Shown here: positions 6,657 through 36,806 of the stretch, one piece after another | How positions within the stretch are numbered: position 1 is the stretch's first letter | Layout of the letters: every line of letters starts with the position of its first letter | From: Candidatus Limnocylindrales bacterium | GTDB taxonomy: Bacteria > Chloroflexota > Limnocylindria > Limnocylindrales > CSP1-4 | Direction of reading: 5' to 3' | NCBI GenBank assembly: GCA_037720745.1 | Contig: JBBJNS010000001.1 | Span: 1-61,612, forward strand | Length of the DNA: 61,612 nucleotides | Made by a program: the position numbers and the translations under genes | The notes under the pieces: model-generated | The model's input: the letters and a program-made list of their open reading frames with translations, nothing else | Told to the model about the DNA's origin: nothing | Databases searched by the model: none

Positions 6657-6678
6657 TCAGGCCGACCTCAGGCCGACC
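6657..6678. repeat. Perfect 2 x 11-bp tandem duplication (tcaggccgacc) that includes the stop codon of the MBL-rhodanese gene
   Basis: Read directly: 6657-6667 is identical to 6668-6678. The second copy begins with the minus-strand TGA at 6668-6670. Confidence 0.85.
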
Positions 6679-10018: not shown

Positions 10019-10026
10019 CCTGGCGC

Positions 10027-10032
10027 AGTGTA
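10027..10032 (-). promoter_or_regulatory. -10-like TACACT, 8 nt upstream of ATG 10018
   Basis: Forward agtgta at 10027-10032, inside the 43-nt gap after the stop at 10062. Confidence 0.35.
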
Positions 10033-10061
10033 TCGAGGTCCCGAGGTCAGCCACGGCTGGA

Positions 10062-17651: not shown

Positions 17652-18851
17652 CTACTGCGCTGGTTCCTGCTCACCGCGCAGCGCACGGCCGACGCTGGCG
17701 TGCAGCATGGCGTTGTCGTACTGGAGCTCCACGCGCCGCAGCGCACGCTCCGTCATCTCCGCCATCAACGTCGGCTCCCGCCAGAGTCGAAGGAGCGCGT
17801 CGGCGAACTGCGCGTCGGTCTCCGCTACGGCCACCTCCTCATCCGGCGTGAAGTCGAGCCCCGCAAGGCCCAGTGACGTGGTGACCACCGGGATGGCCGA
17901 AGCGGTCGCCTCCAGGATCTTGAGACGCGTGCCCGTCCCGGCCTCCAGTGGAGCGAGCAGTGGGCCAGCCTCCGCCAGGGCCGCCATCGCGTCGGACACA
18001 TCGCCAAGCAGCGTCGCGCCGGGGGTGCGCTCCACGAGGGCGCGGAGCGAGGGCGGCGGATCACGCCCGATGAGTACGAGCTTGGCCTCTGGGCGATGCG
18101 ACCGCACCAGCGGGAGGATCCGTGTCAGCAATCTGATGGCGGCAGTCAGATTCGGGTCGAAGCTATAGATACCGACGAATCCGAAGGTGGACGGTTCGGC
18201 TGCGATCGCTCGATAGGGAACGTAGTCGGCGACGCGGATGGTGTTCGGGATGACTCGCACCGTGGCGTCGTAGCGCTCGGCGTAGACCTTCGCCTCCCCC
18301 TGCTCGACGAACCAGACCTCATCGGCATAGCGCGGCACTTCCCGCTCCAGTCGCGCGAGCACGAGGAGGTCGAGTGCTGCGCGACCCCGGCGACCCAGAC
18401 CCGACCCGGTGTGCAGCCGCTGGCGCGCGCCCACTGAGCGGAGTTGCCAGAGATCCACGATAAGGCGGCCGACATGTGGCCTCACAGCGGGAAGGAAGCC
18501 GTCGTAGAGGGGATGCCCCAGGACTACCACGTCCGGCCGCGTCTCGCGCACGATGCCCGCCAGCCTTTCCATCGCGCCGAGTCGAGCCAGGTTCTCCTGG
18601 AATACCTGGCGGCCGCGCACGGTCGCCGCCGAGCGGATGGCGACCCGTCGCAGAGGGTGACGAGGCATCGGCGACGGGAAGACGCGCGCCACGTTCGGCG
18701 GAGTGGGCTCCTGCGGTTGGCTCCAGATGGGGAAGCACACGAGTTCGAGATCGGCCTGGGCGTCAAGGGCCCGATAGATGCCCAGGTCGCGCAGCTTGGC
18801 GCCGGAGACCGCCTCCCAAGGCAGGTCCGCTGTAGCGAATACGACCTTCAC
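17652..18851 (-). CDS. GT4-family glycosyltransferase
   Basis: Motif RLKILEATASAIPVVTTSLGLAGLDF. GTG 18851 (VKVVFATADL) is preceded by GGGAGG with a 5-nt spacing. The track ORF extends to 18911. Confidence 0.8.
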   Translation of the reverse strand: MKVVFATADLPWEAVSGAKLRDLGIYRALDAQADLELVCFPIWSQPQEPTPPNVARVFPSPMPRHPLRRVAIRSAATVRGRQVFQENLARLGAMERLAGIVRETRPDVVVLGHPLYDGFLPAVRPHVGRLIVDLWQLRSVGARQRLHTGSGLGRRGRAALDLLVLARLEREVPRYADEVWFVEQGEAKVYAERYDATVRVIPNTIRVADYVPYRAIAAEPSTFGFVGIYSFDPNLTAAIRLLTRILPLVRSHRPEAKLVLIGRDPPPSLRALVERTPGATLLGDVSDAMAALAEAGPLLAPLEAGTGTRLKILEATASAIPVVTTSLGLAGLDFTPDEEVAVAETDAQFADALLRLWREPTLMAEMTERALRRVELQYDNAMLHASVGRALRGEQEPAQ

Positions 18852-18876
18852 GAAACCTCCCGGAGGGTGGGCATGA

Positions 18877-18882
18877 AGCGTA
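18877..18882 (-). promoter_or_regulatory. -10-like TACGCT upstream of the GT4 gene (short leader containing an SD sequence)
   Basis: Forward agcgta at 18877-18882, about 25 nt upstream of GTG 18851. Confidence 0.3.
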
Positions 18883-18941
18883 TCCCGACTGACCCGCCGG
18901 CTGCTCTCCATCCAGCGGCTCGACGTGCCCGTCCGTGGCCC

Positions 18942-18947
18942 TATCCT
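18942..18947 (+). promoter_or_regulatory. -10-like TATCCT, 5 nt upstream of GTG 18953 and 8 nt upstream of ATG 18956
   Basis: Read directly. Confidence 0.4.
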
Positions 18948-18952
18948 CCGAG

Positions 18953-20464
18953 GTGATGCAGCCGGAGCAGCCAGGTGCCGCGGACGACGCGATCGATCCC
19001 TTGCAGGGTGTCGCGCGGCACGGCGCCTGGCACATGGCGGCGATCGTCGTGCCCGGCGTGTACACCGTCCTCCTCATCGCGTACCTGTTGCGCACCCTTG
19101 GCCCCGAGGCGTACGGCATCTGGGCGGCCGCGACGGCCCTGGTGGGCTACCTGACGCTGTTGGACGCCGGTCTTTCGACTACGACCGCGCGCGCCGCGGC
19201 ACGTGCGGCGGCGGGCGAAGAGGAGGCCATCGACCAGGTCCGGACAGCGTACGGAGCGTATGCGCTGCTGGCCTGTGTGGCGGTCCTCATCGGACTCCTG
19301 CTCGGGACGCTCATCCCTTTGATCCTTCGGCTGGAGGGAGACATCGCACGGGAAGCATGGTTGGTTGCCGCCTTCCTGGCGCTCGACCTGGGGATCGTCA
19401 TCGCCACTGCCGGCTGGATGGGCACGCTTCGGGGCACCCGCCGCTTCCGCGAGATGCTGCTGGTGAACTCGGCACAGGTCGCCGTGGCGGTGCTTCTTCT
19501 GCTCGTCCTCTTGCCGCCCCTCGGCCTGGTCGGTGCGGCCGCGGCACAGCCCGTTGGGCGTATCGTCGGGCGGTCGCTGGCAGCGCTCATCCTCGCCCGA
19601 CAGGTGAGCTGGTTCCGCGCCCGGCCACGGTGGCCCGGTTGGGCGAACCTCCGGACCGTCACCGCGTTTTCGCTGCCCATCCTGGCCATGCAGACCGCTA
19701 CGCAGCTCGGCGTGGGGACGGACGTCATCATCGTCGGAGCTGCCGCGGGTCCCACAGCCGCCGGGCTCTACGCAGCAGGTGCGCAGCTGTCGCGCTACGT
19801 CGGCTACTTCCTGTTCCCGGTGCTGGGGGTGCTGTTGCCCTCATTCTCGACGGCCTTCTTGCAGCGTCCCGAAGCCGCGCCTGAGCTGGTCCGCCGCGCG
19901 GTGCTTCTCACCGGCTTGATCGGCGGAACGGTGTATGGCGTGATGGCGTTCCAGGCCGAGCCCCTGCTCCGGCTATGGTCGGATCAGTCGTCCGCCCTGA
20001 GCGTCCAGGTCCTGATCCTCTACGCCCTGGCCTGGACGATCGTCACGCCCACGCACGTGATGATGCTGATGGTCATCGCCAGCGGACGGCATCGGATCAT
20101 CGGAGCGATCGTGCTCGCCGAGGCGCTCGTGAACCTGGTCTTGTCCATCGTCCTCGTCTCGATGATGGGTCCGGTCGGGGCGGCGATCTCGAGCTTCCTG
20201 GTCATCCTGGCGGACGACCTCTTCCTCCTTCCCGTGGTTTCCGCGCGAGCGCTCCGGACGCGAACGCGGCCCATCCTGCAGGGCTCACTGGGGGGCGCTC
20301 TGGGAGGGATCGCCATCGCGGCGGCCGTCACCCTGCTGCCAGTGAGTGGCGTGGAGGGCCTCCTCCTGCGTGGCCTGGTCGCCGCGGCGGTCCTGGCAGT
20401 GGCCATCGCCGTGGTCGTGCCGGGCAGTCGGGCGCTTATCGCGGGGCGCCGACGGAGCGGCTGA
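18953..20464 (+). CDS. MOP-superfamily oligosaccharide/polysaccharide flippase (Wzx-like), copy 1
   Basis: About 503 aa with 12-14 TM segments. The N-terminus is typical: YGIWAAATALVGYLTLLDAGLSTTTAR. The track start is GTG 18935. Confidence 0.8.
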   Translation: MMQPEQPGAADDAIDPLQGVARHGAWHMAAIVVPGVYTVLLIAYLLRTLGPEAYGIWAAATALVGYLTLLDAGLSTTTARAAARAAAGEEEAIDQVRTAYGAYALLACVAVLIGLLLGTLIPLILRLEGDIAREAWLVAAFLALDLGIVIATAGWMGTLRGTRRFREMLLVNSAQVAVAVLLLLVLLPPLGLVGAAAAQPVGRIVGRSLAALILARQVSWFRARPRWPGWANLRTVTAFSLPILAMQTATQLGVGTDVIIVGAAAGPTAAGLYAAGAQLSRYVGYFLFPVLGVLLPSFSTAFLQRPEAAPELVRRAVLLTGLIGGTVYGVMAFQAEPLLRLWSDQSSALSVQVLILYALAWTIVTPTHVMMLMVIASGRHRIIGAIVLAEALVNLVLSIVLVSMMGPVGAAISSFLVILADDLFLLPVVSARALRTRTRPILQGSLGGALGGIAIAAAVTLLPVSGVEGLLLRGLVAAAVLAVAIAVVVPGSRALIAGRRRSG

Positions 20465-21998
20465 AGGAGTCGACCGCGGGGCTTCGCCCGACAAGTCCGG
20501 CTGCCAGCCCCAGCATAGTTCCGAAGATCACGGCTTCGGCCAGTACAAGTGGATTCGTGCCGGCGAGCTGCACCAGCGCCCAGACCGGGATCCAGGCGGC
20601 CAGCCACAGGAGCGCCGCCCCTTGCCAGACGCTCCGGACGCCGCGGAGTGCGCCGAGGAGCCGGACCCACGTGACGCCTAGCAGCGCTGCCAGGAGGAGC
20701 ACCGCGGGAAGTCCGCCTACGAGGCCTGCCGTCAGCCAGAGTGAGTTGGGATCGTTGATCCTGGCCGCGTCGGGGATGTAGTCGGGGCTATCGGGATCGT
20801 GCACGGCCACATCGAAACGGCTCATGCCCGTGCCCAGGACCAGCGAGCGCGGCGACTCGAGGATGGCTTCGAGCGCTACCGCCTGAAGGCGCACACGGGT
20901 CTGCCCGGCGCGACTGGCCCCGCCCTCCACGCTCGGATCGAAGGGCGTCTCGGATGTCATGGGGTCGGGCAGATCAGTGGCAGCCAGCCGCCTTGCCCCC
21001 AAGTCGTCGGCGAGGACCGTGGCACCCAGCGTCAGCACCAGGAATCCAGCCGTCAGGGCGCCGGGCACCAGCTCCTTGCGGAGTGACCGACTCCGGACGC
21101 GCAGCCTCCAGATCACATCGATGACGACCGTCAGCCCCACCGCCGCGACCAGCCCAAGCAAGCCTGCTCGAGAGTAGGTCCAGTACGTCAGGAGGCTGAC
21201 GAGCGCGATCCCCACGAAACCTGCGGCAACGAGGCGCCGGTCGCCGGCATGCCAGCCGCGCAGGGTAACGGCCGTCGCGAGCGGTGCCAGCAGGATGCCG
21301 AAGAAGGCCATGTAGTTGGTGTGGAAGAAGAGACCCGTGGCACGGATGTCCCCCTCCCCGCCCAAGCGGAAGTGCAGCGGCGGCGGTCCGACCTCTCCCA
21401 GCCGAGGATGCTGAAAGACATTGGCGGGCCGGAAGAACCGCCAGAAGTCGGCCAGCGGATCCGCGCTGCCTGGCTCGGGATATGTCACGCGCTCCAACAC
21501 CGCGCCCGCGAAGGCCAGGAGGAGGAGGACGCCCAGGAAACCGATGAGCCGGCGCGGGCCGCTGTCAAGGCTTGCGCGCAGTGCGGCGAAGGCCACGGCC
21601 GCCGCGCCCCCTGCGAAGAGCAGATACACGATGGCCGGCTTGAGGTCGGCACCGCCACCTCGTAACAGCGCGGCCAGCGGGAACCAGCTGAGGTAGGCGG
21701 CGAAGAGGAGCAGCCACGGGAGGTCGCGGCGCTCCAGCAGCCGCCAGGCACCTCCAGCCAGCAGGAGGAGTGCACCGAGCGGCACGATAAGCTCCATGGG
21801 CGTGATGTCTGCCCATGGCGTGCGCAGCAGCACGTTCTGAGGGAACCACCAGGCGGCCACGAGCTGCGCGAACGTCGCCAGGATCAGCCCCGCTGCGATC
21901 GGCGCCGCCACCCGCGGAGGCCCCCGCCACCCAAGCCCGCCGAACGGGCCAGAACGCTGCGGGCGATCGCGGGGTGCGTTGGGGGAACGGTCGTCCAC
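20436..21998 (-). CDS. Wzy/O-antigen-ligase-like polytopic membrane protein, divergent copy
   Basis: 520 aa with more than 10 TM segments. It contains GLFFHTNYMAFFGILLAP and a large loop with a degenerate Wzy_C-like stretch DPNSLWLTAGLVGGL. Its 3' end overlaps the flippase 3' end by 29 nt. Confidence 0.6.
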   Translation of the reverse strand: MDDRSPNAPRDRPQRSGPFGGLGWRGPPRVAAPIAAGLILATFAQLVAAWWFPQNVLLRTPWADITPMELIVPLGALLLLAGGAWRLLERRDLPWLLLFAAYLSWFPLAALLRGGGADLKPAIVYLLFAGGAAAVAFAALRASLDSGPRRLIGFLGVLLLLAFAGAVLERVTYPEPGSADPLADFWRFFRPANVFQHPRLGEVGPPPLHFRLGGEGDIRATGLFFHTNYMAFFGILLAPLATAVTLRGWHAGDRRLVAAGFVGIALVSLLTYWTYSRAGLLGLVAAVGLTVVIDVIWRLRVRSRSLRKELVPGALTAGFLVLTLGATVLADDLGARRLAATDLPDPMTSETPFDPSVEGGASRAGQTRVRLQAVALEAILESPRSLVLGTGMSRFDVAVHDPDSPDYIPDAARINDPNSLWLTAGLVGGLPAVLLLAALLGVTWVRLLGALRGVRSVWQGAALLWLAAWIPVWALVQLAGTNPLVLAEAVIFGTMLGLAAGLVGRSPAVDSFSRSVGAPR

Positions 21999-22001
21999 CG
22001 A

Positions 22002-22010
22002 TAGACTCTA
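22002..22010. promoter_or_regulatory. Overlapping divergent -10 boxes in the near-palindrome ATAGACTCTA
   Basis: TAGACT on the plus strand is at 22002-22007. It lies upstream of the SD sequence GAGGAG (22020-22025) and GTG 22033. TAGAGT on the minus strand is at 22010-22005, 6 nt upstream of GTG 21998. Confidence 0.45.
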
Positions 22011-22032
22011 CCCGCCGCTGAGGAGATCCGAT

Positions 22033-24130
<2,098 letters not shown>

Positions 24131-24131
<1 letters not shown>

Positions 24132-25042
24132 TGCGCGTCCTGGTCACCGGCGCCTCCGGCTTCGTGGGGCGCTGGCTGTCCCGGGCACTCATCGACAAGG
24201 GCCACGAGGTCCTGGACGGGGGGCCACGACTCGACGTCACCGACCAGGGGGCGATGAGGGAGGCTCTGGCGAGAGCGGAGCCTGACGCGGTGGCGCACCT
24301 GGCGGCTATCGCGTTCGGACCCGATGCCGGCGCGGACCCGGCCAATGCCTTCAGAGTTACCGTGGGTGGCACGGTGAACCTGCTCGAGGCGGCCCGTGCC
24401 CTGCGCCGGCCGCCGGCCGTCCTGGTCACCGGCTCATCTGACGTGTACGGCACGCCGGCGGCCGAGGACCTGCCGCTGACGGAGGACGCGCCGTTGCGGC
24501 CCGTCAAGCCTTATGCGCTGTCCAAGGCGGCGCAGGAGTCGATCGCGCTGGCCTACGCCGCTCGTCACGAGCTGCGCGTCGTGGTGACGCGCTCCTTCAA
24601 CCACGCTGGGCCGGGCCAGCGGCCGGTCTTCGTCATCCCGGCGCTCGCCGAGCGCGTGGCGGCCGTGGGCCGCGGCGAGACCGATGAGGTGCCCACCGGC
24701 AACCTCGACGTGCGGCGCGACGTGACCGACGTGCGTGATGTGGCTGACGCCTACGTGCGCCTTCTCGAGGCGCTCCACGAGGGCAGAGTGGGCAAGTCTG
24801 GGATCACCATCAACGTCTGCTCCGGCCGATCGGTGACCATCCGCTGGCTCCTGGAGGAGCTCGGGCGACTGGCCGGGGTCCAGCCCCGCATCCGCATCGA
24901 TCCTGCCCTCGTTCGCCCCGACGATGCGCCAGAGATCCGCGGCGACGCATCGGCCATCGAGGATCTCATGGGCTGGCGGGCCACGACCCCGCTGGAAACG
25001 ACCTTGGCCGACATCTGGGCGGCCACCAACAGGGGCCTGTGA
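24131..25042 (+). CDS. NAD-dependent epimerase/dehydratase, most like GDP-4-keto-6-deoxy-D-mannose reductase (Rmd)
   Basis: 303 aa. Motifs are MRVLVTGASGFVGRWL and YALSKAAQE (YxxxK). The ATG shares 1 nt with the gmd TGA. The track fuses this gene to an out-of-frame upstream stretch (23411..). The Rmd assignment over fucose synthase is an inference from the N-terminal pattern and the protein's size. Confidence 0.7.
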
Positions 25043-25191: not shown

Positions 25192-26379
25192 GTGACTGAA
25201 CGTATCCTGGTCCTGGGCGGAGACGGCTATCTGGGCTGGCCCACGGCGATGCACCTCTCAGGACGCGGCGCGCGCGTGGGCGTGGTGGACAACATGTCCA
25301 AGCGTGCCTGGGAACGCGAGCTAGGCGTGGAACCGCTCATCGCCATCGCATCGCTCACCGAGCGGATCGCTGCCTGGAAGGAAGTCTCCGGAGCCTCCAT
25401 CGAGCTGTTCGAGGGGGACCTGACCGAGGCTGACTTCGTGCACGCCACGCTGGAGTCCTTCCGTCCCGACACGATCATCCATTACGGCGAGCAACCGTCC
25501 GCGCCGTATTCCATGATCGATGTCCATCACGCCGCCTTCACGCAGTCCAACAACGTGGTAGGCAACCTCAACGTTATTTTTGCCATGCGCGACCTGGTGC
25601 CGGACAGCCACCTGGTGAAGCTGGGCACCATGGGCGAGTACGGCACGCCGGATATCGATATCGAGGAGGGCTACCTCAAGGTCGACCACAACGGTCGCAG
25701 CCACACGTTCCTCTACCCCAAGACACCCGGCTCGATGTACCACCTCTCCAAGGTCCACGATTCCCACAACATCCATTTCGCCTGTCGGGTCTGGGGTCTG
25801 CGCGCCACGGATCTCAACCAGGGCGTGGTCTACGGGATCGAGACCGAGCAGACCGCTCTCGACCCACGGCTGGCCACGAGCTTTCACTACGACGAGGTCT
25901 TCGGCACCGCTCTGAACCGCTTCTGCGTGCAGGCCGTGGCGGGCGAGCCCATCACGGTCTATGGCAAGGGCGGGCAGACACGTGGGTATCTCAACATCCG
26001 TGACACGCTGGCCTGCGTCGCGCTGGCCGTGGACAACCCCGCCGGCCGCGGCGAGATGCGCGTCTTCAATCAGTTCACGGAGACCTTCACGGTCCTGGAG
26101 CTGGCCCAGCGCGTGCGCGATGCGGCGGCGCAGCTGGGCATCGCGGCCGACGTCATCCATGCCGATAATCCGCGCTTCGAGGCGGAGGAGCACTACTACA
26201 ATCCCAAGCATTCGGGACTCGTCGAGCTAGGTCTCCAGCCACATCTGCTGTCGCAGGAGCTCATCGACACGATGCTGCAACGCATCGTCGAGCACCGCGC
26301 GCGCATCCGACCCGAGTCACTCGTCATGAATGTACGGTGGACCCCCAAGCTCCGATCCGGCGCGGCGGCCGGGCTGTGA
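25192..26379 (+). CDS. sqdB: UDP-sulfoquinovose synthase
   Basis: 395 aa, matching SQD1/SqdB nearly throughout. Matching stretches are ILVLGGDGYLGWPTAMHL, VDNMSKRAWERELGVEPLIAIASL, HYGEQPSAPYSMID, HLVKLGTMGEYGTPDIDIEEGY and YHLSKVHDSHNIHFACRVWGLRATDLNQGVVYG. Confidence 0.9.
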   Translation: MTERILVLGGDGYLGWPTAMHLSGRGARVGVVDNMSKRAWERELGVEPLIAIASLTERIAAWKEVSGASIELFEGDLTEADFVHATLESFRPDTIIHYGEQPSAPYSMIDVHHAAFTQSNNVVGNLNVIFAMRDLVPDSHLVKLGTMGEYGTPDIDIEEGYLKVDHNGRSHTFLYPKTPGSMYHLSKVHDSHNIHFACRVWGLRATDLNQGVVYGIETEQTALDPRLATSFHYDEVFGTALNRFCVQAVAGEPITVYGKGGQTRGYLNIRDTLACVALAVDNPAGRGEMRVFNQFTETFTVLELAQRVRDAAAQLGIAADVIHADNPRFEAEEHYYNPKHSGLVELGLQPHLLSQELIDTMLQRIVEHRARIRPESLVMNVRWTPKLRSGAAAGL

Positions 26380-26395
26380 ACCCGCGCCCTCAACC

Positions 26396-27805
26396 ATGAT
26401 CAGACGGCATACGGCTGCCCTGCGCGTGGCGCTCATGGTGGTCGACGTCGCCAGTGCGATGCTCATGTTCGTCCTGGTGGCCGGGCTGCGCGTGAGCGAC
26501 CGTGACTGGACCGCCGTGATGGGCCCCGCCACGGCGCTGACGGGCCTGGCGGCCCTGGTTTACGCGGGCGGCTGGGTCGTCACGCTGTGGCTGCGAGGCC
26601 TCTACCGACTGCGCACCCGCTGGTCCATCCGGCGGGAGGCGCTGGACATCGTCACCTCGGCCGTGATCCTGGCGGTGATCACCTTCGCCGTCCTGTTCCT
26701 GTTCCGGCTCAGCGATGTCAGCCGGCTCTTCCTGCTGGCCCTCTTCCCCGCTCAAGTGTTGCTCACGCTGGGCGTGCGCATCGTGCTGCGTCGCGGCTTC
26801 GAGTGGATCCGTCGTCGCGGCGGCAACGCACGCTTCTCACTGGTAGTGGGCACCGGTCCCGCCGCGCAGGAGTTCGCCGATCGCATGGAGAGCCACCCGG
26901 CGCTGGGACTCAAGGTCATCGGTCACCTTTCTGAGCCACACGACCCGCCGCTCGTCGTGAGCCGGCCGGTGCTCGGCTCTGTGGAGGACGTCATCGATAT
27001 CCTCCATGACAACGTGGTCGATGAGGTGGCCATCTGCCTGCCGGTCACGGAGTGGGCTCTGGTGGAGCCTGTGACGCGCGTCTGCGAGGCGGAGGGCCGC
27101 GTGGTGCGCATCCCCATGGACGTGGTGGGGCTGCCCATGGAGCGCGGCATCGTGGAGGAGATCGACGGTCAGCCGGTGGTCTCGTACGTGTACGGGCCGG
27201 ATCGGGCGGTCGGGCTGCTCTTCAAGCGCGGCATCGACGTGGCCATCTCCGCCATTGCACTGCTACTGCTGGCACCGGTCCTGTCCGTCGTGGGCGTGTT
27301 GGTGCGGCTCAGCGACGGCGGCCCGGCCATCTTCCGCCAGACACGTGTCGGCCTTCACGGTCGAACCTTCACGTTGCTCAAGTTCCGGAGCATGGTGGCC
27401 GGCGCGGAAGAGCAGCTGGATGACCTCCGACACCTCAACGAGATCGAGGGCGGCGCCTTCAAGCTCTCCGAGGACCCTCGTCAGACCCGGACCGGCCGCT
27501 GGCTGCGTCGCACCTCGATGGACGAGCTTCCTCAGCTCTGGAACGTCCTGCGCGGCGAGATGAGCCTGGTGGGGCCGCGTCCGCCGCTCCCCGACGAGGT
27601 CGCCGGCTACGACTTGTGGCATCGCCGCCGACTGTCCATGAAGCCGGGCGTGACGGGCCTCTGGCAGGTCGAGGGGAGACGCGAGCCCCTGTTCGACCGC
27701 TGGGTGGCCATGGACCTCGACTACATCGACCGCTGGTCCCTCTGGCTGGATCTCAAGATCCTGCTGCGGACGATCCCCTCGATGCTTCAGCAACAGGGCC
27801 GCTGA
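26396..27805 (+). CDS. Polyprenyl-phosphate glycosyl-1-phosphate transferase (WbaP/WcaJ-type priming enzyme)
   Basis: N-terminal TM segments plus a C-terminal sugar-transferase domain. The domain reads FKRGIDVAISAIALLLLAPVL, GPAIFRQTRVGLHGRTFTLLKFRSM and DELPQLWNVLRGEMSLVGPRP. ATG 26396 is preferred, since the track start at 26330 overlaps sqdB. Confidence 0.85.
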   Translation: MIRRHTAALRVALMVVDVASAMLMFVLVAGLRVSDRDWTAVMGPATALTGLAALVYAGGWVVTLWLRGLYRLRTRWSIRREALDIVTSAVILAVITFAVLFLFRLSDVSRLFLLALFPAQVLLTLGVRIVLRRGFEWIRRRGGNARFSLVVGTGPAAQEFADRMESHPALGLKVIGHLSEPHDPPLVVSRPVLGSVEDVIDILHDNVVDEVAICLPVTEWALVEPVTRVCEAEGRVVRIPMDVVGLPMERGIVEEIDGQPVVSYVYGPDRAVGLLFKRGIDVAISAIALLLLAPVLSVVGVLVRLSDGGPAIFRQTRVGLHGRTFTLLKFRSMVAGAEEQLDDLRHLNEIEGGAFKLSEDPRQTRTGRWLRRTSMDELPQLWNVLRGEMSLVGPRPPLPDEVAGYDLWHRRRLSMKPGVTGLWQVEGRREPLFDRWVAMDLDYIDRWSLWLDLKILLRTIPSMLQQQGR

Positions 27806-29264
27806 GTCGCTTCGAGTTCCCTTCCCGCAGGGCCAGGCCAAGGGCCGTGCCCAGGACGGCGAAGACGGGGATGTTGAGCTGAGCGTAGTTCAACGGGTTG
27901 TTGAACGAGGCCATGATGGCGTAGGCGACGAGCACGCCGAAGGCACCCAGCGCGACGGCGCCGCCCCAGACGACGGCCCGGGTCAGCTGCCAGAGGGCTG
28001 TGAGGGCCGCCACCAGGAACACGAGGCCAGCCGTCCCCACGATGACGCCCTGCTCGGCATAGAGGCGCAGCCACTCGTTGTGTGGTGCGGATTGGGCTGG
28101 ATCCCCGAACTGCGCGTGGAGCAGAACGTATGAGCGGAAGCCATGACCGATGAGAGGCGAGTCCAAGGTCATCCTGATGGCCGCCGCCCAGCCGCTGGCG
28201 CGCACCGAATCGCCCACCGTGAAGAACCCCTGGAGGATGCCCTCGACCCCGGCCAGCGGGGTCCCGGCGCGCTGTTCCAGGTAGAGCGGCACCAGGATCG
28301 CCGCACCCACCACTGCGACGAGCAGCATCACGATGGCGGCGGAACGACGGATGTACCAGGCGTACGAGACGGCAACCGCCGCCAGGGCCAGGACCGCCGA
28401 GCGACTGAAGGTCAGCAGCACGCCCAGGGCCACCACGGCCAACACGGCTGAACCGGTCAGCCACACGGACAGCGACCGGCGATGCATCATCCAGGCAGCC
28501 ACCAGGCAGGCCGCTAGCAGGGCCAGCATGGCCATGGCGTTGGGCGCGGACATGATGCCCCTCAGCCGCAGGGGCTCCTCGTCCACGGCGATCAGCCAGC
28601 CCAGTGGTGTCGAGACGATCAGGCTGGGCAGTGCCTCGTGTAGAAGGCCGATGCACACTGCGATGGCTGCCGCTGCGGCAGCACCGGCTGCGACCAGGCT
28701 CGCGCGTGACCCTCCCTGGCTCCCGAAGAAGACGCCGATGAGCAGCACCACCAGAGCCATGCCTGTGCCCGTTCCCCATAGTTCCGCCGCCTCGTAGCCC
28801 GCCGCCGGTCCGAAGCGGACGGTGGTGTGGATCACGCCGAGGCCCGTTCCGAAGAACACGACCGCTGCCGCAGCGAGAGCAACGCCGGCCGGCGTCCGGA
28901 GCGCAGGCAGTTCCGCCAGGGCGCCGCGTGCTCGCCACCATTCGGGAAGTCGCGCCAGCGTCCGAACGGCCTCGGATATGACCAGCGAGCCCTCCAGGAC
29001 CGCGCGGCCGCCGGCCTCGGTGCCCAGCACGGACCAGTCATCGAAGGGACCCAGAGCGACGGCCGCAAGGAACCCGGCCAGCGGCGAGAAGAGCGCCACG
29101 AGGGAGGCCAGAGCCGCCCATACCTCGGGTACAGGGCTGCCCATGCCCGCGGAACGAAGGATGACGAAGGCGGCCACGAGAAGGGCGGCCAGCGCCGGAT
29201 CGCGGGAGGACCACGAGGTCGACCGAGGCCCGGTCACGGTCCTGCTGCCACCGGTCGCCGCCAT
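27753..29264 (-). CDS. O-antigen ligase/polymerase family membrane protein (Wzy_C domain), canonical copy
   Basis: Polytopic, with the motif SAPHNEWLRLYAEQGVIVG. ATG 29264 is preferred (MAATGGS..) because of the adjacent -10 box. The track ORF to 29573 is an upstream extension. The 3' end overlaps the priming transferase by 53 nt. Confidence 0.75.
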   Translation of the reverse strand: MAATGGSRTVTGPRSTSWSSRDPALAALLVAAFVILRSAGMGSPVPEVWAALASLVALFSPLAGFLAAVALGPFDDWSVLGTEAGGRAVLEGSLVISEAVRTLARLPEWWRARGALAELPALRTPAGVALAAAAVVFFGTGLGVIHTTVRFGPAAGYEAAELWGTGTGMALVVLLIGVFFGSQGGSRASLVAAGAAAAAAIAVCIGLLHEALPSLIVSTPLGWLIAVDEEPLRLRGIMSAPNAMAMLALLAACLVAAWMMHRRSLSVWLTGSAVLAVVALGVLLTFSRSAVLALAAVAVSYAWYIRRSAAIVMLLVAVVGAAILVPLYLEQRAGTPLAGVEGILQGFFTVGDSVRASGWAAAIRMTLDSPLIGHGFRSYVLLHAQFGDPAQSAPHNEWLRLYAEQGVIVGTAGLVFLVAALTALWQLTRAVVWGGAVALGAFGVLVAYAIMASFNNPLNYAQLNIPVFAVLGTALGLALREGNSKRLSGPVAEASRGSSAAGS

Positions 29265-29272
29265 GCCCGGGC

Positions 29273-29278
29273 AGGATA
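29273..29278 (-). promoter_or_regulatory. -10-like TATCCT, 8 nt upstream of ATG 29264
   Basis: Forward aggata at 29273-29278. Confidence 0.4.
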
Positions 29279-29296
29279 GCGGCATCGACCGACTGC

Positions 29297-29302
29297 TAGA
29301 CT
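29297..29302 (+). promoter_or_regulatory. -10-like TAGACT upstream of the epimerase gene (about 30-nt leader containing the SD sequence GGGAGGGA)
   Basis: Read directly. ATG 29334 is preceded by gggaggg. Confidence 0.4.
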
Positions 29303-29333
29303 CGGCCGCGCTCCACCGGAGCTCACGGGAGGG

Positions 29334-30314
29334 ATGGACACGAACGCCGCGCGACGCATCCTCGTGACCGGCGGGGCCGGCTTCATCGGGGCTTCCCTGG
29401 TGCGCGCCCTGGAGGCCGCCGGTGACAGGGTGACCGTGGTGGACGACGGCCGCGCGGCGGGCACCGCCTTTGTGCGCGGTACGGCGGCACCGGTCGTGTC
29501 GGGTGACGTCGGGCGGCTGAGCGCGAATGGCGAGATGGAGCGCCTGCTGGCCGGCACCGATGCGATCGTGCATCTGGCGGCACGGACGGGGGTGCCCGCC
29601 TCCATCGCTGATCCGGCGGCCGACTGGGCCGACAACGTGGTGGCCAGCCTGGCCCTCCTTGACCTCGCCCGGCGGAGCGGCGTGGAGCGCTTCGTCTTCG
29701 CCTCCTCCAACGCCGCCGTGGGCGCGGCAGAAGGCCCCATCAGCGAGAACACGGTCCCGCGGCCGACCTCACCGTACGGCGCCGCCAAGCTCGCCGTGGA
29801 GGGCTACCTCTCGGCCTTCGCAGACTCTTATGGGATGGCCAGCGTGGCCATCCGCTTCGCCAACGTCTACGGTCCGTACGCCCTGCACAAGCGAAGCGTC
29901 ATCGCCTCCTTCCTGCTGGCCGGGCTGCGGGGTCGACCACTGACCGTCTACGGCGACGGCAGCCAGGCCAGGGACCTGGTGCACGTGGACGACCTGGTGA
30001 GTCTCATCCGCGCCTCCCTGGATGCACCGTCCGAGCGCGTGGCGGGCCGCATCTTCCAGGGTGGGAGCGGTGTGCGCACGCCCATCGGCGAGCTGGCCAC
30101 CCTGGTCAGTGACGTGCTGGGAGGAGAAGTGCCGGTCGTCCATCAGCCGGCGCGCACGGGTGACGTGGCCGGCGCTGCCTGTGACCTGTCGCTGGCCACG
30201 GAACTGGTCGGGTACCGGCCGCAGGTCGAGCTTCGTGCGGGCATCACCAGCGTGGCCGGATGGTTCCGAGCGGCCCTTCAGGATCCCGAGCTCGCGGCCC
30301 TGGCCGACCGGTGA
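29334..30314 (+). CDS. NAD-dependent nucleotide-sugar epimerase/dehydratase (GalE/UXS-like SDR)
   Basis: 326 aa with motifs ILVTGGAGFIGASLVRAL and SPYGAAKLAVEGY. Confidence 0.8.
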   Translation: MDTNAARRILVTGGAGFIGASLVRALEAAGDRVTVVDDGRAAGTAFVRGTAAPVVSGDVGRLSANGEMERLLAGTDAIVHLAARTGVPASIADPAADWADNVVASLALLDLARRSGVERFVFASSNAAVGAAEGPISENTVPRPTSPYGAAKLAVEGYLSAFADSYGMASVAIRFANVYGPYALHKRSVIASFLLAGLRGRPLTVYGDGSQARDLVHVDDLVSLIRASLDAPSERVAGRIFQGGSGVRTPIGELATLVSDVLGGEVPVVHQPARTGDVAGAACDLSLATELVGYRPQVELRAGITSVAGWFRAALQDPELAALADR

Positions 30315-31642
30315 CCGCTGGGAAGTCGCCTCCGGCGAGTCGATCCCTGGTGCGTGAGGCGGCCACCACGGTCGGTGCCCGCTTCCTGCTGGCGGCCCTC
30401 ATCCTGGCCACCGACGTGCTGCTGGCCAGGACGTTGGGCGCGGACGCCAAGGGGCGCTTCACGCTCGTTCTGCTTCTTTCGCAGCTGTCAGCGCTGGCCA
30501 TCGGACTGGGCTTGGACCGGGCCATCGGCGTGGCGGTGGCTCGATCGGCGGCGGCCGCCCGTGCCAGCCTGGCCAACGCCCTCGCCTGGACCGCCGTGGT
30601 GGGCGGTGCCGCCTCACTGGCCGGTCTGGCCCTGGCGGCCAGCACAGCGGTGCCCAACCTGGCTGCCAGCGACGTCCTTTTCGCGGCGTTGGCGCTGCCC
30701 CTCGAGCTGCTCATCTCCATGGGCCTGCTGGCCCTCCTTGGGCGGCGGCTGGTTGGTGCCTACAACGCTACGCGCCTCTTGCGCCGAGCGGTGCTGCTCA
30801 CGGGCCTGGGCATCGTGGCCCTGGCCGGCCTGGATCTGCGTGCTGCGCTGGTCGCCAACCTGGTGGCGCTGGCCCTGGGCGTGCTCCTGGTCTTCGTCGC
30901 ACTGCGCCGCGACGGCGTGTCGCCGGCACGGCCGGGGAAGCACCTGCTGGCCGACCAGCTGCGCTACGGGATCCGCTCCTGGCCCGGCTCTCTCGCCGAG
31001 CGTCTCCAGTTCCGTGCCGACCTCTTCCTGGTCAACGCGCTGGTGGGCGTGACCGCGACTGGCGTCTATTCCGTGGCCACATCCGTGGCCGAGACGCTGT
31101 GGTACATCCCGGCAGCGCTGGGTGTGGTCATCTTCAGCCGCGTCGCGGCAGGCGGCCTGGATGCTGCGCCGCTGACGAGTGCCGTCACTCGCGTGACGCT
31201 GGCCTTCGGCCTGGTGGTCGGCGCGGCCGCCCTGGTCATCGCTCCCATGGGCGTGGAACTGCTGTACGGAGCGCCCTTCCGCGACGCTGGCCCGGCCCTC
31301 CAGTTGCTGCTGCCTGGCATCGTCGCCTACGGCGTGGTCTCCGTGCTCTCGCAGTTCCTGCTGGCGGCGGGGGCGCCCGGCCGCTCCACCCTGGTGCTGC
31401 TGGCCGGACTGACCATCAATCTGGTGGCCAACGCCCTGCTCATACCGCGCTTCGGCATCATGGGTGCGGCCATGTCTTCCTCCATCTCCTACACCATCAC
31501 CGCCCTGCTCATGGTCCTCGCGTTCCATCGACTGACCCATCAGCCCCTGCGGGACACGCTGCTGGTGCGACGCAGCGATCTGCGCCGTCTGGTGGAGCGC
31601 TTGGACAGTCGATCGATGGGGAGCGCGGCTCGTGGCGCCTGA
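30311..31642 (+). CDS. MOP-superfamily polysaccharide flippase (Wzx-like), copy 2
   Basis: Polytopic, about 443 aa. GTG 30311 overlaps the upstream TGA (GTGA). The track start is 30260. Confidence 0.75.
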   Translation: MTAGKSPPASRSLVREAATTVGARFLLAALILATDVLLARTLGADAKGRFTLVLLLSQLSALAIGLGLDRAIGVAVARSAAAARASLANALAWTAVVGGAASLAGLALAASTAVPNLAASDVLFAALALPLELLISMGLLALLGRRLVGAYNATRLLRRAVLLTGLGIVALAGLDLRAALVANLVALALGVLLVFVALRRDGVSPARPGKHLLADQLRYGIRSWPGSLAERLQFRADLFLVNALVGVTATGVYSVATSVAETLWYIPAALGVVIFSRVAAGGLDAAPLTSAVTRVTLAFGLVVGAAALVIAPMGVELLYGAPFRDAGPALQLLLPGIVAYGVVSVLSQFLLAAGAPGRSTLVLLAGLTINLVANALLIPRFGIMGAAMSSSISYTITALLMVLAFHRLTHQPLRDTLLVRRSDLRRLVERLDSRSMGSAARGA

Positions 31643-33081: not shown

Positions 33082-34335
33082 ATGGCCCAGTCGTTTACTA
33101 CCGCCCCGAACCGTAAACGACAGGAACGTCGGCCCTCCATCCGTGGCACCGGCCTGATGGCCCGTCGTCTCTTCTGGGCAGCCACGGGGCTGCTCGGCTG
33201 GGTCTATGCGGGCTATCCGCTGGCAGCCTACGCGGCCGGACGCGTGCGGCCGGTCATCGTCACCGCCGTGGAGCCGCCGGTGGCCAGCGTGACCGTGGGC
33301 ATCGCCATCCACGACGAGGCCGAAGAGATCGCCGCGCGCATCGCCGATGTGCTGGCACAGGAGATCGACGCCTCGCTGGAGGTGATCGTAGCTTCAGATG
33401 GCTCCACCGACGGCAGCGACGAAGTGGTCCGAGCGCTGGCCGCGGCCGACCCCCGCATCAGGCTGCTGTCGCTGGCACGTGCCGGCCAGACCGCGGCACA
33501 GAACCGGATACTGGCCGAAGCGCGTTCCGAGATCGTGGTGCTGACCGATGCCGAGACACGCTTCGAGCCCGGTTGTCTTGCGGCGCTGGTGGAACCGTTC
33601 GCCGACCCGCGTGTGGGCGCCACCACGGGGGTCTTGCTGTGGCGCAACCTGGGCGACACGCAAACTACCCGCCACGAGGGCATCTACTGGCGTTACGAGC
33701 AGTCAGTGCGCGGCGCGGAGAGCCGCGCCGGCTGGCTCACGGCCGCCACGGGCGCGCTGCTCGCCCTTCGCCGCGAGCTGATCGGTACCGTGCCGGAGCA
33801 CAGCTCCTTCGACCACATCGCGCCCCTCCAGGTGCGTGAGGCCGGTCGTCTCATCCTGGCTGTCCCGGAGGCTCGGGCCACGGACCGCGTGGTGGCCGGT
33901 CTGGGTGATCAATTCCGTGCCCGTTCGCGCACCGCCACGCGAGGCATCGCCGCCAACCTGGCCATGGCCCGTCGCCTGCCACCGTGGCGCAGTCCCAGCG
34001 CGGCCATCGCCATCTGGTCGCACAAGATCCTGCGCTGGGCGTCGCCCTGGGCCGTGCTGCTCGCCTGCGGCGCAGGGCTGTTGCTGACCTTGCGGGGCCA
34101 ACGCCGGTACGCGGTGGCGCCGGCAGGCGCGGCTGCGGCCGTCCTCACGGCTACCTGGGAGTACCGTGCCAGGAAGGCGTCGCGGCCGGGTACTCGCATC
34201 GGGACCGCAGCCCTGGCCATCGTCGCCGTCAACGCCGCCTTCCTGCGAGGCTGGCTCAACCTCCTGGCACGTCGGCGCATCTATGTCTGGCAGGGCCATC
34301 ACTGGCAGGCTCAGGGTACGCCGAAGCAGCCCTAG
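33082..34335 (+). CDS. GT2-family glycosyltransferase with flanking TM segments
   Basis: Motifs are VTVGIAIHDEAEEI, VIVASDGSTDGSDEVV and VVLTDAETRF, followed by C-terminal TM helices. The true start may be ATG 33157 (MARRLFWAATG). Confidence 0.8.
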   Translation: MAQSFTTAPNRKRQERRPSIRGTGLMARRLFWAATGLLGWVYAGYPLAAYAAGRVRPVIVTAVEPPVASVTVGIAIHDEAEEIAARIADVLAQEIDASLEVIVASDGSTDGSDEVVRALAAADPRIRLLSLARAGQTAAQNRILAEARSEIVVLTDAETRFEPGCLAALVEPFADPRVGATTGVLLWRNLGDTQTTRHEGIYWRYEQSVRGAESRAGWLTAATGALLALRRELIGTVPEHSSFDHIAPLQVREAGRLILAVPEARATDRVVAGLGDQFRARSRTATRGIAANLAMARRLPPWRSPSAAIAIWSHKILRWASPWAVLLACGAGLLLTLRGQRRYAVAPAGAAAAVLTATWEYRARKASRPGTRIGTAALAIVAVNAAFLRGWLNLLARRRIYVWQGHHWQAQGTPKQP

Positions 34336-35498
34336 TCCATGTGCGAGCCGACCCAACCCCGCACGGCCCTGTTCTTAAGCTTCGATGAGTCCTTCGGGTA
34401 CGTCAGCACCTTGGCGTAGGAGGGCGGCACGAACACGATCCTATCCGAGCTGTAGGCGATGGCACCAGCGAGCTTGCTGCGCAGCCACGAAACGTCCTCC
34501 CAGCCGGTCGGCAGGCTGGTGGTGACGTGGCTGAGAGAGGCGGAGCGAAGGCTGCTCAGGTCAGCCCCACCGGAAGCCACTTTGCGTATGGCGGCGAGGA
34601 CCAGGCCCTGCTGACGGCGCACACGTTGCGCGTCGCTGTTGGCGGCACTGCCTACGGTGCCCTTGCGGCTGCGCACATAGACGATGCCGCGCTTGCAGTT
34701 CATGGCTGTGCCCGAGCAGCGCTTGGCTGCCCATCCCCGCAGGTTCCAGCCGTATGCCGTGGGGAACTGGATGCCGAAGGGCGGCGAAGCTGAGTCTTGA
34801 TAGTTCGGATCGACGATCCGCGCAGGGATGTCCACGGACACTCCACCGACGTTGTCCATGAGCGCATCGAAGCCGGAGAATCGCAGGTAAGCGTAGTAGT
34901 CGATCTCCATGCCCAGCGCGAAGGCGACGTCCTTCCTGAACTTGTCCAGAGCGGTGCGCTCGATGACGCCGTCTGCCTGCCGCTTGTACCCGTCATACAG
35001 GAGGTTGACGCGCAGCGCTCCCGAGTCCTTGGCCGTCCCACTGCGGTTGTCCGGATGGACGGGGAAGTAGGCTACGTCACGGGGGATGCTGGCCATGGCC
35101 AGGCGCTTGGTGGCCAGATCGAGGGACGCCACCATCATCACGTCCGTGTGTTCCGTGTAGCGATAGCCCGTGCGGTAGTCCGAGCCCAGCAACAGGACGG
35201 TCAGACGGCCGTCGCTGCCGGCACTGACCGCGGACGGCGAAGCGGCGGCGGCGGCGGCCTCATCGAGCGCGCGCGAGATGTCACTTCGCAGCGCCTCAGC
35301 TCCCTGAGCGAGCGATGCCCCGAGAGAAGTCCCTGATGGTCTCAGCGCAAGCGCGTCTTCGGGAAGCGGGCTGCCCGATGAAGCCGGGGCGCGCTGAGCT
35401 AGCTCCGCCTCCGAAGCCGTGACACCCATCCCCGGCAGCGCTGCGACCAGCAGGCCAGCCAGGAAGACGCCACCGAACCGTGTGCGCGATCCGGTCAT
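34332..35498 (-). CDS. LCP (LytR-CpsA-Psr) family glycopolymer ligase, paralog 1
   Basis: Motifs are LLLGSDYRTGYRYTEHTDVMMVASLD and MASIPRDVAYFPV, with an N-terminal TM segment. ATG 35498 shares 1 nt with the upstream TGA. Its stop overlaps the GT2 stop within CTAG. Confidence 0.85.
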   Translation of the reverse strand: MTGSRTRFGGVFLAGLLVAALPGMGVTASEAELAQRAPASSGSPLPEDALALRPSGTSLGASLAQGAEALRSDISRALDEAAAAAASPSAVSAGSDGRLTVLLLGSDYRTGYRYTEHTDVMMVASLDLATKRLAMASIPRDVAYFPVHPDNRSGTAKDSGALRVNLLYDGYKRQADGVIERTALDKFRKDVAFALGMEIDYYAYLRFSGFDALMDNVGGVSVDIPARIVDPNYQDSASPPFGIQFPTAYGWNLRGWAAKRCSGTAMNCKRGIVYVRSRKGTVGSAANSDAQRVRRQQGLVLAAIRKVASGGADLSSLRSASLSHVTTSLPTGWEDVSWLRSKLAGAIAYSSDRIVFVPPSYAKVLTYPKDSSKLKNRAVRGWVGSHMD

Positions 35499-36712
35499 CA
35501 GGGCACCTCCACAGCGGCCATCTTCTGGGCGATCCACGCTCGGACATCCTTGAGGAGAAGTCGGGCCGAGTCCTTGGGCACGGCCAGATCGGTGGCCCAG
35601 GTGGGCGGTGCGAACACCACGCGAGACCTGGCCGGCGACCTTGCCCCGGCGAGGCGGTCGCGCAGCCAGGCCGCATCGGCGGCGGTGCGCGGCATATCAG
35701 TCGCGATGTGCGAGATCGACCCCAGGCGGAGCACCTCCAGATCCGCCTCTCCTGCCGTGACCTTCTGGATGGCCGCAAAGATGAGTCCTTGCTGGCGTCT
35801 CGCGCGCTGGTAGTCGCTGTTCGACGCGCTGCCGACCTTGCCCTTGCGACTCCGGACGTAGACGATGCCGCGCTTGCAGTTCTTGGTCGTGCCAGCACAG
35901 CGTTTGGCGCTCCCACCTTTGAGCAGCCAATCGGTGGCGACCGGGAAACGGATGCCCGGCGTGGGCGAGTCCTGGTAGGACGGGTCGACGATGGCGGCGG
36001 GGATGTCCACGGCGATGCCGCCTGCCATGTCGACCAGGGCATCGAAGCCGGAGAAGCGGATGAGGGCGTAGTAGTCGATCTCCACGCGCAGCGCGTGTGC
36101 GACGTCCATCCCCACGCGCTCCAGAGCCCGTGCGTCGGCTTCGCCGTCACCGCCCGTTTGTCGATAGCTGTCGTACAGGAGATTGACGCGCAGATCACCG
36201 GAATCCTTGGCACCGCCCGGAGGTCGGTTCTCAGGATGGATGGGGAAGCGGACCATGGAGCGTGGGACGCTGGCCATGGCCAGCTTGCCCCTCACCGGGT
36301 CCAGCGAGACGACCATCATCACGTCCGTGTGTTCCAGGTACTTGTAGTCGGCGCGGTAGTCCGAGCCCAGGAGCAGGATCGTCAGGCGCCCGTCCGCCCC
36401 GTAGCTGATGGTCGGCTCCTCACCGGTGGCCAGCCCGGCATAAGCCAAGGCAAGTTCGTTAAGACCCGAGCGCAATCGCTCGCCGGCCCCCGATGCGCCA
36501 CGCAGCAGCGCACCCAGGGTGTCATCACCCGGCGCAGCGAGCGGCGGGTTCGCTCTGGCTCCCGGGACTGCCGCCGCGTCTGGCGTGGGGCTGGCGGCGA
36601 CCCCGGGAAAGGCGGCGACCAGCAGGGATGCGGCCAGCGCGAACGAACCAAGACGACGGCGGATGACGGACACCGGCTCACTCCCCCTCGCGGGATCCCT
36701 TGATCCCGTCAC
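35498..36712 (-). CDS. LCP family glycopolymer ligase, paralog 2
   Basis: Motifs are LLLGSDYRADYKYLEHTDVMMVVSLD and MASVPRSMVRFPI. It shares the MTGSR N-terminus with paralog 1. Confidence 0.85.
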   Translation of the reverse strand: MTGSRDPARGSEPVSVIRRRLGSFALAASLLVAAFPGVAASPTPDAAAVPGARANPPLAAPGDDTLGALLRGASGAGERLRSGLNELALAYAGLATGEEPTISYGADGRLTILLLGSDYRADYKYLEHTDVMMVVSLDPVRGKLAMASVPRSMVRFPIHPENRPPGGAKDSGDLRVNLLYDSYRQTGGDGEADARALERVGMDVAHALRVEIDYYALIRFSGFDALVDMAGGIAVDIPAAIVDPSYQDSPTPGIRFPVATDWLLKGGSAKRCAGTTKNCKRGIVYVRSRKGKVGSASNSDYQRARRQQGLIFAAIQKVTAGEADLEVLRLGSISHIATDMPRTAADAAWLRDRLAGARSPARSRVVFAPPTWATDLAVPKDSARLLLKDVRAWIAQKMAAVEVP

Positions 36713-36806
36713 CCGCAGCCTAATACCTCTGGCAAGGGGGTTCCAGCAGCCACTTCAGCGGGACCCCTCAGGACCTTATCCGGACGATCGTCCCGCCATC
36801 ACCTGC

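Follow-up and report, generated by a model that had tools for sequence, protein, structure and literature searches.

Sulfoquinovose (SQ) is counted among the organosulfur compounds of greatest abundance. In a 2026 review of its cycling, biosynthesis runs via SqdB–SqdX and the sulfolipid sulfoquinovosyl diacylglycerol (SQDG), and the source is the SQDG of phototrophs (PMC13436972). The Agl3 pathway of Sulfolobus acidocaldarius takes another route, in which UDP-sulfoquinovose (UDP-SQ) goes to a lipid-linked surface N-glycan and not to a lipid (PMC4388408, PMC8993221), and our full-text literature searches found sulfoquinovose in glycans in Archaea only. Here we analyse sqdB, encoding a UDP-SQ synthase homologue, in a 61,612-nt stretch of DNA (the window) from Candidatus Limnocylindrales bacterium (assembly GCA_037720745.1, contig JBBJNS010000001.1, positions 1–61,612). 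Since this sqdB travels with a flippase and two glycosyltransferases, and not with a sulfolipid synthase, its most likely role is to supply a sulfonated surface glycan. Our preferred reading, to which we assign a probability of about 0.6, is that SqdB makes UDP-SQ and that the co-inherited cassette incorporates the sugar into a lipid-linked envelope glycan.

The window belongs to a 2.22-Mb metagenome-assembled genome of the Limnocylindrales (Chloroflexota) in 223 contigs, 90.9% complete and with a GC content of ∼70%. Close homologues and related contigs carry Chloroflexota source names, and an actinobacterial origin, which the GC content had suggested, was rejected. Its genes were called by third-position GC and annotated via Pfam, NCBIfam and PDB searches. 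The comparison sets were 61 relatives of the same order, 15 with sqdB and 46 without, and 80 sqdB loci (L031–L110), 64 of them Limnocylindrales-type, onto which the window proteins were mapped.

SqdB and its five-gene cassette

The cassette comprises sqdB and four further genes on the same strand of the window:

25192–26379, + strand: sqdB, UDP-sulfoquinovose synthase homologue, 395 aa (phmmer against 1QRR; NF041015)
29334–30314, + strand: GalE-like UDP-hexose 4-epimerase, a short-chain dehydrogenase/reductase (SDR); nearest relatives are UDP-glucose/UDP-hexose 4-epimerases
30260–31642, + strand: MOP (Wzx-type) flippase, polytopic, 460 aa
31632–32903, + strand: GT4_d, a retaining GT4 glycosyltransferase with an atypical N-terminal half
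33082–34335, + strand: membrane GT2 glycosyltransferase with an N-terminal transmembrane (TM) helix, a GT-A domain, the motif KLLRW and C-terminal TM helices

A sequence-only reading of this DNA had called sqdB unambiguous and SQD1-like nearly throughout, and the alignment bears this out. Residues 3–384 of SqdB align with residues 2–383 of Arabidopsis thaliana SQD1 (1QRR) over 382 residues (phmmer; E 2e-152), with about 60% identity over the full length, and the gene is single-copy in the window's genome. On NF041015 the protein scored 455 bits (E 1e-136), under the equivalog cut-off of 575 bits, which was exceeded in one of 12 matching control genomes. With residue roles taken from the SQD1/Agl3 active site (PMC4388408), SqdB keeps Thr146, Tyr183 and Lys187 (Thr145, Tyr182 and Lys186 of SQD1/Agl3, including YxxxK) as well as His184 (His183), and the NAD motif GxxGxxG is present as GGDGYLG. 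All of these are invariant or nearly so in 80 close SqdB homologues, with the catalytic Thr/Tyr/Lys and the His kept in 80/80. From this homology we infer that the product of SqdB would be UDP-SQ.

Across the 64 Limnocylindrales loci, the prevailing order was sqdB, GalE-like epimerase, MOP flippase, GT4_d and membrane GT2, on one strand. Among the loci with sufficient downstream DNA, 49 of 57 had the epimerase downstream of sqdB on the same strand, 43 of 50 the flippase, 37 of 46 GT4_d and 35 of 44 the membrane GT2. The genomes agree with the loci. Fourteen of the 15 relatives with sqdB also had orthologues of the flippase, GT4_d and GT2, and these three were found in none of the 46 genomes lacking sqdB (0/46). 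The epimerase was detected in 13 of the 14 cassette genomes, the exception being a fragmented assembly (G008), and a single sqdB-less genome has an epimerase homologue, 50% identical. The shared phyletic profile of sqdB, flippase, GT4_d and GT2 implies that the cassette is gained or lost as a unit.

In the window's genus this arrangement has been interrupted twice: a phosphoglycosyltransferase (PGT) gene and a Wzy_C-type gene (Wzy_C_b) are inserted between sqdB and the epimerase, and a further 17 kb of glycan genes separates sqdB from its usual upstream neighbour. The sequence-only reading had been built around the pairing of sqdB with the PGT. That pairing does not hold up in the relatives: only 10 of the 64 loci show it, with order and orientation varying, and it represents a lineage-specific rearrangement; the informative linkage is the five-gene cassette, not the sqdB–PGT pair. 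In a congeneric genome (G002; contigs C2 and C21, loci L016 and L023), each of three genes (sqdB, that of the cassette GT2 and that of a sulfotransferase) contains an in-frame TGA, which could be assembly error or a sign of a decaying cassette.

The partner proteins look like a small assembly and export unit for a lipid-linked glycan. A flippase orthologue in another locus (L019) matched PF13440 at 1e-9, with PF03023 and PF01943 under their curated cut-offs; a PDB sequence search of the cassette flippase was uninformative. GT4_d has a canonical GT4 C-terminal half and an N-terminal half without a Pfam match, and its homologue search returned generic names only. In the membrane GT2, the Asp residues of the GT-A domain and the KLLRW motif are invariant. 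PDB sequence matches for this protein were weak, and its structure was taken from an AlphaFold2 model built from 15 orthologues (predicted local distance difference test 84.6, predicted template modelling score 0.80). The model appears closest to PcManGT of Pyrobaculum calidifontis (6YV7; E 1e-16, TMt 0.77), which ranked ahead of hyaluronan and cellulose synthases in predicted fold, with ArnC, GtrB and DPMS far behind. By the title of the work cited in PMC8993221, PcManGT is a transmembrane mannosyltransferase of archaeal N-glycan biosynthesis with a minimal cellulose-synthase-like fold. A processive polymer synthase is a minor possibility only for the membrane GT2, given that its best predicted fold is the non-processive PcManGT and its motif is KLLRW, not QxxRW.

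Search for a sulfolipid synthase

In the SQDG pathway, SqdB is partnered by the sulfolipid synthase SqdX or SqdD. A protein-homologue search with SQD1 gave plant proteins only, and SqdX was therefore taken from metagenome contigs: the reference is a 373–378-aa GT4 encoded directly downstream of sqdB on eight low-GC contigs, with Nostocales GT4s as its nearest database relatives (82–100% identical). This choice fits the published co-localisation of sqdB and sqdX in cyanobacteria (PMC13436972). As a positive control, the reference recovered an SqdX orthologue right after sqdB on a high-GC contig (L150; 59% identity, 444 bits). Against the window's whole genome its best match reached 68–75 bits at 26–32% identity, and against the 61 relatives, including a genome with sqdB and no cassette (G035), 85 bits. 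Maximum-likelihood analysis placed SqdX (100/99) and GT4_d (100/100) in separate clades, while GT4_a, GT4_b and GT4_c of the window formed long unaffiliated branches. The comparison of GT4s with SqdX that the sequence-only reading had asked for thus places every window GT4 outside the SqdX clade.

For SqdD, a GT8 enzyme, the query came from the sqdB operon of Sinorhizobium meliloti, found by a plasmid search that lacked cyanobacterial matches. Tblastn of this protein against the window's genome gave a best E of 0.88 and no homologue. Altogether, neither SqdX nor SqdD has an orthologue in the window's genome or in the 61 relatives, in agreement with the earlier remark that no obvious sqdX or sqdD stands beside sqdB. 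By these comparisons, the view that sqdB here acts as a glycan-locus gene and not as a sulfolipid-operon gene is supported.

The wider glycan locus and its possible sulfur supply

In the window's genome, the cassette lies within one large envelope-glycan locus spanning 8.4–38.0 kb of the window. Its left border is a gene for a metallo-beta-lactamase with two rhodanese domains (6668–8068), and its right border is an acc/fab cluster. The other main features are:

6668–8068, − strand: CstB-like persulfide dioxygenase with two rhodanese domains, candidate sulfite source
8405–10120, − strand: LtaS-like protein with four to five TM helices and a sulfatase-fold ectodomain (PF00884 under cut-off)
10062–11354, − strand: polytopic protein of 430 aa, faintly matching PIG-U/ALG6-type (GT-C) families
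12485–13540, + strand: carbohydrate sulfotransferase of the 3′-phosphoadenosine 5′-phosphosulfate (PAPS) type (PF13469, PF00685, 3RNL)
17652–23151: second Wzx/Wzy set, GT4_b (−), Wzx (+), Wzy_C_a (−) and GT4_c (+)
23148–25042, + strand: gmd (23148–24131) and rmd (about 24128–25042), GDP-D-rhamnose pathway
26396–27805, + strand: large PGT (polyprenyl-phosphate hexose-1-phosphate transferase, TIGR03025), in a reading frame open from 26330
27753–29573, − strand: Wzy_C_b, a polytopic protein of polymerase, ligase or O-oligosaccharyltransferase type
34332–38027, − strand: three tandem LytR-CpsA-Psr (LCP) ligase paralogues, directly past the membrane GT2

Together these give the locus two MOP flippases, two Wzy_C proteins and three LCPs, and a PGT, a MOP flippase, a Wzy_C protein and an LCP ligase occur together as in a Wzx/Wzy/LCP pathway. 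The locus also encodes GT4_a, a PMT_2 GT-C protein and a glycerol-phosphate module (G1P-dehydrogenase-like protein, cytidylyltransferase and CDP-alcohol transferase), with the LtaS-like and GT-C-like genes forming its left end beside this module. The gene content described earlier (gmd, an rmd-like gene, flippases, Wzy- or ligase-like proteins and LCPs around sqdB) was recovered in full, with rmd a true RMD; the five GT4s counted then are four GT4s and one membrane GT2. Gmd scored 448 on TIGR01472 (cut-off 415), and among solved structures Rmd comes closest to two GDP-6-deoxy-D-mannose reductases, 6X3B (E 2e-49) and 2PK3 (E 3e-45). With gmd above its equivalog cut-off and an Rmd-type reductase next to it, GDP-D-rhamnose synthesis is encoded.

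The PGT had been described as a WbaP/WcaJ-type priming enzyme 16 nt after sqdB. Its in-frame ATG (26396) does lie 16 nt past the sqdB stop and it does belong to the large PGTs, with TIGR03025 at 398.5 bits (cut-off 295.6), PF02397 at E 4e-66 and the N-terminal CoA_binding_3/membrane region PF13727 at 5e-19; on the narrower WcaJ and WbaP equivalog models it scored under the cut-offs. Because its adjacency to sqdB is lineage-specific, that adjacency lends no support to UDP-SQ-dependent priming by the PGT.

A separate sulfotransferase with 5′-phosphosulfate-binding (5′-PSB) and 3′-phosphate-binding (3′-PB) loops, placed earlier at 12518–13540, is indeed present, and we extend it to 12485–13540. 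It scored 53 bits on PF13469 (cut-off 27) and also matched PF00685; in the PDB it matched the bacterial sulfotransferase 3RNL (E 1e-40) and heparan-sulfate 3-O-sulfotransferases, and it has the 5′-PSB loop GAPGCGTT and a 3′-PB region. An obligate tie between this enzyme and sqdB was rejected: two genomes without sqdB (G007 and G027) have the gene, and it went undetected in most cassette genomes.

Sulfite for SqdB needs a source. The window's genome has CysD, CysN and CysC (the APS kinase), with this set recorded at C27:5964–6638 and C73:8820–9263, and no CysH-type reductase, NIR_SIR sulfite reductase or Sat was found in it. Since no CysH-type or sulfite reductase turned up, sulfate activation apparently serves PAPS-dependent sulfation, and the sulfite for SqdB would come from elsewhere. 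The CstB-like dioxygenase plausibly supplies it. Its best PDB matches were 3TP9 and 3R2U (E 5e-56), with persulfide dioxygenase–rhodanese fusions and ETHE1-type dioxygenases lower; we take 3R2U to be CstB of Staphylococcus aureus, its PDB entry being named only as a metallo-beta-lactamase family protein. A CstB-like orthologue is divergent from sqdB, about 100–130 bp apart, in 30 of the 64 loci, and in the window it is the gene that 17 kb of glycan genes part from sqdB.

Proposed fate of UDP-sulfoquinovose and comparison with known systems

Under the preferred reading, SqdB would convert UDP-glucose and sulfite to UDP-SQ. The inverting membrane GT2 and/or the retaining GT4_d would extend a polyprenyl-diphosphate-linked acceptor at the inner membrane face by SQ and a second hexose, and the GalE-like epimerase may provide that second hexose or act on UDP-SQ itself. 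The cassette flippase would then export the glycan unit, a Wzy_C protein would polymerise or transfer it and, in the window's genome, the adjoining LCP ligases would attach the product to the wall. The UDP-SQ-using transferase, the acceptor and the final attachment site in this scheme are all putative. In the window's genus, the cassette has been fused with a larger locus that brings in the PGT, the D-rhamnose pathway, the second Wzx/Wzy set, the sulfotransferase and the glycerol-phosphate module, and the output would be one wall polymer, or several, of strongly anionic character. The sequence-only reading had gone further, to a possible anionic wall polymer that is both sulfonated and sulfated and also contains 6-deoxyhexose. 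D-rhamnose and PAPS-dependent sulfation are both encoded, as it supposed; the sulfotransferase is not tied to sqdB, and a single polymer both sulfonated and sulfated is possible.

Several observations weigh against this reading, beginning with the enzyme. Pro102 of the window SqdB replaces Arg101 of the SQD1/Agl3 EQRSAP motif, and this position is Pro in 80/80 of the closest homologues (Limnocylindrales, Terriglobia and Actinomycetota), with a nearby IDR changed to IDV across the same Pro101-type clade. Arg101 is kept in SQD1 and in cyanobacterial, S. meliloti, Pseudonocardia and many soil-metagenome enzymes, and every SQDG-linked and archaeal SqdB-type enzyme that we inspected has it. As alanine in place of Arg101 leaves Agl3 inactive (R101A; PMC4388408), the clade-wide replacement means that the product or the sulfur donor of the clade could differ. 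Being so well conserved, the Pro101-type clade is surely functional, and its loss of Arg101 is a natural test of the SQD1/Agl3 mechanism.

The remaining points concern the cassette and its surroundings. Four relatives (L017/L060 = G035, L076, L080 and L093) keep an intact sqdB without the cassette, the lone gene standing between a dioxygenase–rhodanese gene and fabG; one of them, G035, is a closed 3.1-Mb chromosome with sqdB and with neither cassette, SqdX nor SqdD, and so another sink must exist in such genomes. The membrane GT2 weakly resembles the lipid- or small-molecule-acceptor GT2s HpnI, CruG and MftF. The CstB-like gene also occurs in six sqdB-less genomes, which leaves its link to sqdB suggestive only and led us to reject an exclusive one. 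The case is homology and gene neighbourhood throughout, and because the window's genome is only 91% complete, the absences reported for it are provisional.

Other sqdB genes occur in different settings. On plasmid pPA12743CP of Pseudonocardia autotrophica (L111), an Arg101-type sqdB (59% identity) is divergent from a GT2/GT21-like membrane glycosyltransferase and lies near a MurJ-like flippase and a gene of the pyridoxal phosphate-dependent cysteine-synthase family; this GT2 showed no orthology to the window's membrane GT2. In five Terriglobia loci (Acidobacteriota; L095, L098, L099, L105 and L108), a Pro101-type sqdB is followed by a conserved ∼204-aa LysE-type translocator, and no glycosyltransferase adjoins it.

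Relatives also differ in the envelope genes around the cassette: among the 64 loci, a Wzy_C gene is a neighbour in 16, a PGT lies within 10 kb in 10 and an LCP is near in 6. In 15 of the 64, the cassette itself or the position directly upstream of sqdB holds a gene for a secreted protein with a signal peptide and three C-terminal CWB2 repeats (for example L021 13265–15079, and L044, L057, L063 and L071), and no CWB2 homologue was found in the window's genome. CWB2 motifs anchor proteins to the anionic wall polymer PSII in Clostridioides difficile (PMC4973711). A DUF2304-GT2 (Dpm1/GtrB-like) gene stands beside the cassette in 21 of the 64 loci, with a ∼660-aa GT-C-like polytopic protein adjoining in 16, and in two Actinomycetota contigs its orthologue directly follows sqdB, with a class-V aminotransferase upstream (DUF2304-GT2 examples: L048 16131–19167, − strand; L107 8226–9272; L109). 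The window's genome has no DUF2304-GT2 orthologue, only generic matches at 32–35%.

These neighbours bear on where the glycan would end up. LCP attachment is plausible in the window's genome, where three LCPs stand directly past the GT2; in relatives, LCP genes are near the cassette in just the 6 loci counted above. The best surviving alternative, which we consider unlikely, is that Bacteria have their own version of the SQ N-glycan known from Sulfolobus, in which a Wzy_C-type O-oligosaccharyltransferase moves a short SQ oligosaccharide to secreted or S-layer-like proteins such as those with CWB2 repeats. The Wzy_C family PF04932 also takes in O-oligosaccharyltransferases of the PglL/WsaB type. 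The counts of Wzy_C, CWB2 and LCP genes in relatives suit this alternative, as does the modelled likeness of the GT2 to an archaeal N-glycan enzyme. The window's own genome, with its LCPs and no detected CWB2 homologue, does not; moreover, CWB2 proteins are known for binding anionic polymers and are not known as obligatory glycoproteins (PMC4973711).

A sulfonated glycolipid seems quite unlikely. Here, GT2 and/or GT4_d would form a new family of SQDG-type synthases that place SQ, with or without a second hexose, on diacylglycerol or some other lipid of the membrane, and flipping of the glycolipid would fall to the MOP protein. In its favour, no other known fate of UDP-SQ is nearly as common as SQDG, the weak GT2 matches include GT21-type lipid glycosyltransferases as well as HpnI, CruG and MftF, and the cassette adjoins the acc/fab cluster, just as the lone sqdB abuts fabG in four relatives. 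That adjacency is a chromosomal landmark, found also where the cassette is absent. Set against the glycolipid are the missing SqdX and SqdD orthologues and the MOP flippase, Wzy_C, PGT, LCP and CWB2 neighbours, which indicate a polyprenol-linked glycan, so that a glycan is better supported than a lipid. Very unlikely, finally, is that SqdB does not make UDP-SQ, using another nucleophile or donor or arresting at the 4-keto-5,6-ene, with the cassette installing a different 6-modified hexose: the clade-wide Arg101 and IDR changes, the inactivity of Agl3 R101A (PMC4388408), the dedicated SDR after sqdB and a usual neighbour of the CstB type, which deals not only with sulfite but also with persulfide and thiosulfate, all leave room for it, and the full-length likeness to SQD1, the retention of all other tested catalytic residues and the conservation of the clade across three phyla argue that the enzyme works and carries out a reaction of the same general kind.

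If SqdB does feed a sulfonated surface glycan, that structure is one not so far described from bacteria. As a conserved cassette that is neither phototrophic nor lipid-directed, in an order widespread in soil and freshwater, it would be a new sink and source of sulfoquinovose, and it offers candidate SQ-transferases for lipid-linked glycans, one a retaining GT4 and the other an inverting membrane GT2. More tentatively, Limnocylindrales may make a sulfonated secondary wall polymer containing sulfoquinovose or its 4-epimer (through the GalE-like enzyme), with sulfite from a CstB-type dioxygenase and not from sulfate reduction, and with the polymer serving as an anionic anchor for CWB2 proteins. 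Such a polymer would be the first glycan with sulfoquinovose known from Bacteria and a sulfur-based, phosphate-free analogue of teichoic acid, and the cassette a phosphate-free means to an anionic cell wall.

Among known systems, the SQDG pathway (SQD1/SqdB with SqdX/SQD2 or SqdD) has the same first enzyme, alike over its full length and in GxxGxxG, Thr/Tyr/Lys and His. It differs in Arg101, which is Pro here, and in its partners: the window has a flippase, an atypical GT4 and a membrane GT2 in place of SqdX (GT4) or SqdD (GT8). With the Agl3 N-glycan system the locus would share the use of UDP-SQ for a glycan, and the PcManGT fold predicted for the membrane GT2 belongs to such pathways. Unlike that system, the locus is bacterial, would use a polyprenyl and not a dolichyl carrier, and has a Wzx/Wzy/LCP and PGT context in place of AglB-type N-glycosylation; its SqdB, under the cut-off on NF041015, is of the SQD1-like and not the Agl3 type. 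Side-chain systems built on polyprenyl-phosphate sugars (GtrB/GacI-type GT2 with GT-C) resemble the DUF2304-GT2 and GT-C loci of relatives; as the window's genome lacks a DUF2304-GT2 orthologue, this route is not the one used here.

We know of no described sulfonated LCP-type secondary wall polymer. The locus also resembles those of the Wzx/Wzy-dependent, LCP-attached wall polysaccharides of monoderms, such as C. difficile PSII, which share the PGT, glycosyltransferases, MOP flippase, Wzy_C protein and LCPs, and the CWB2 genes beside the cassette in relatives extend the likeness (PMC4973711). The difference would lie in the charge, which here would be a C–S sulfonate, possibly with sulfate esters and glycerol phosphate, instead of phosphodiesters or uronic acids.

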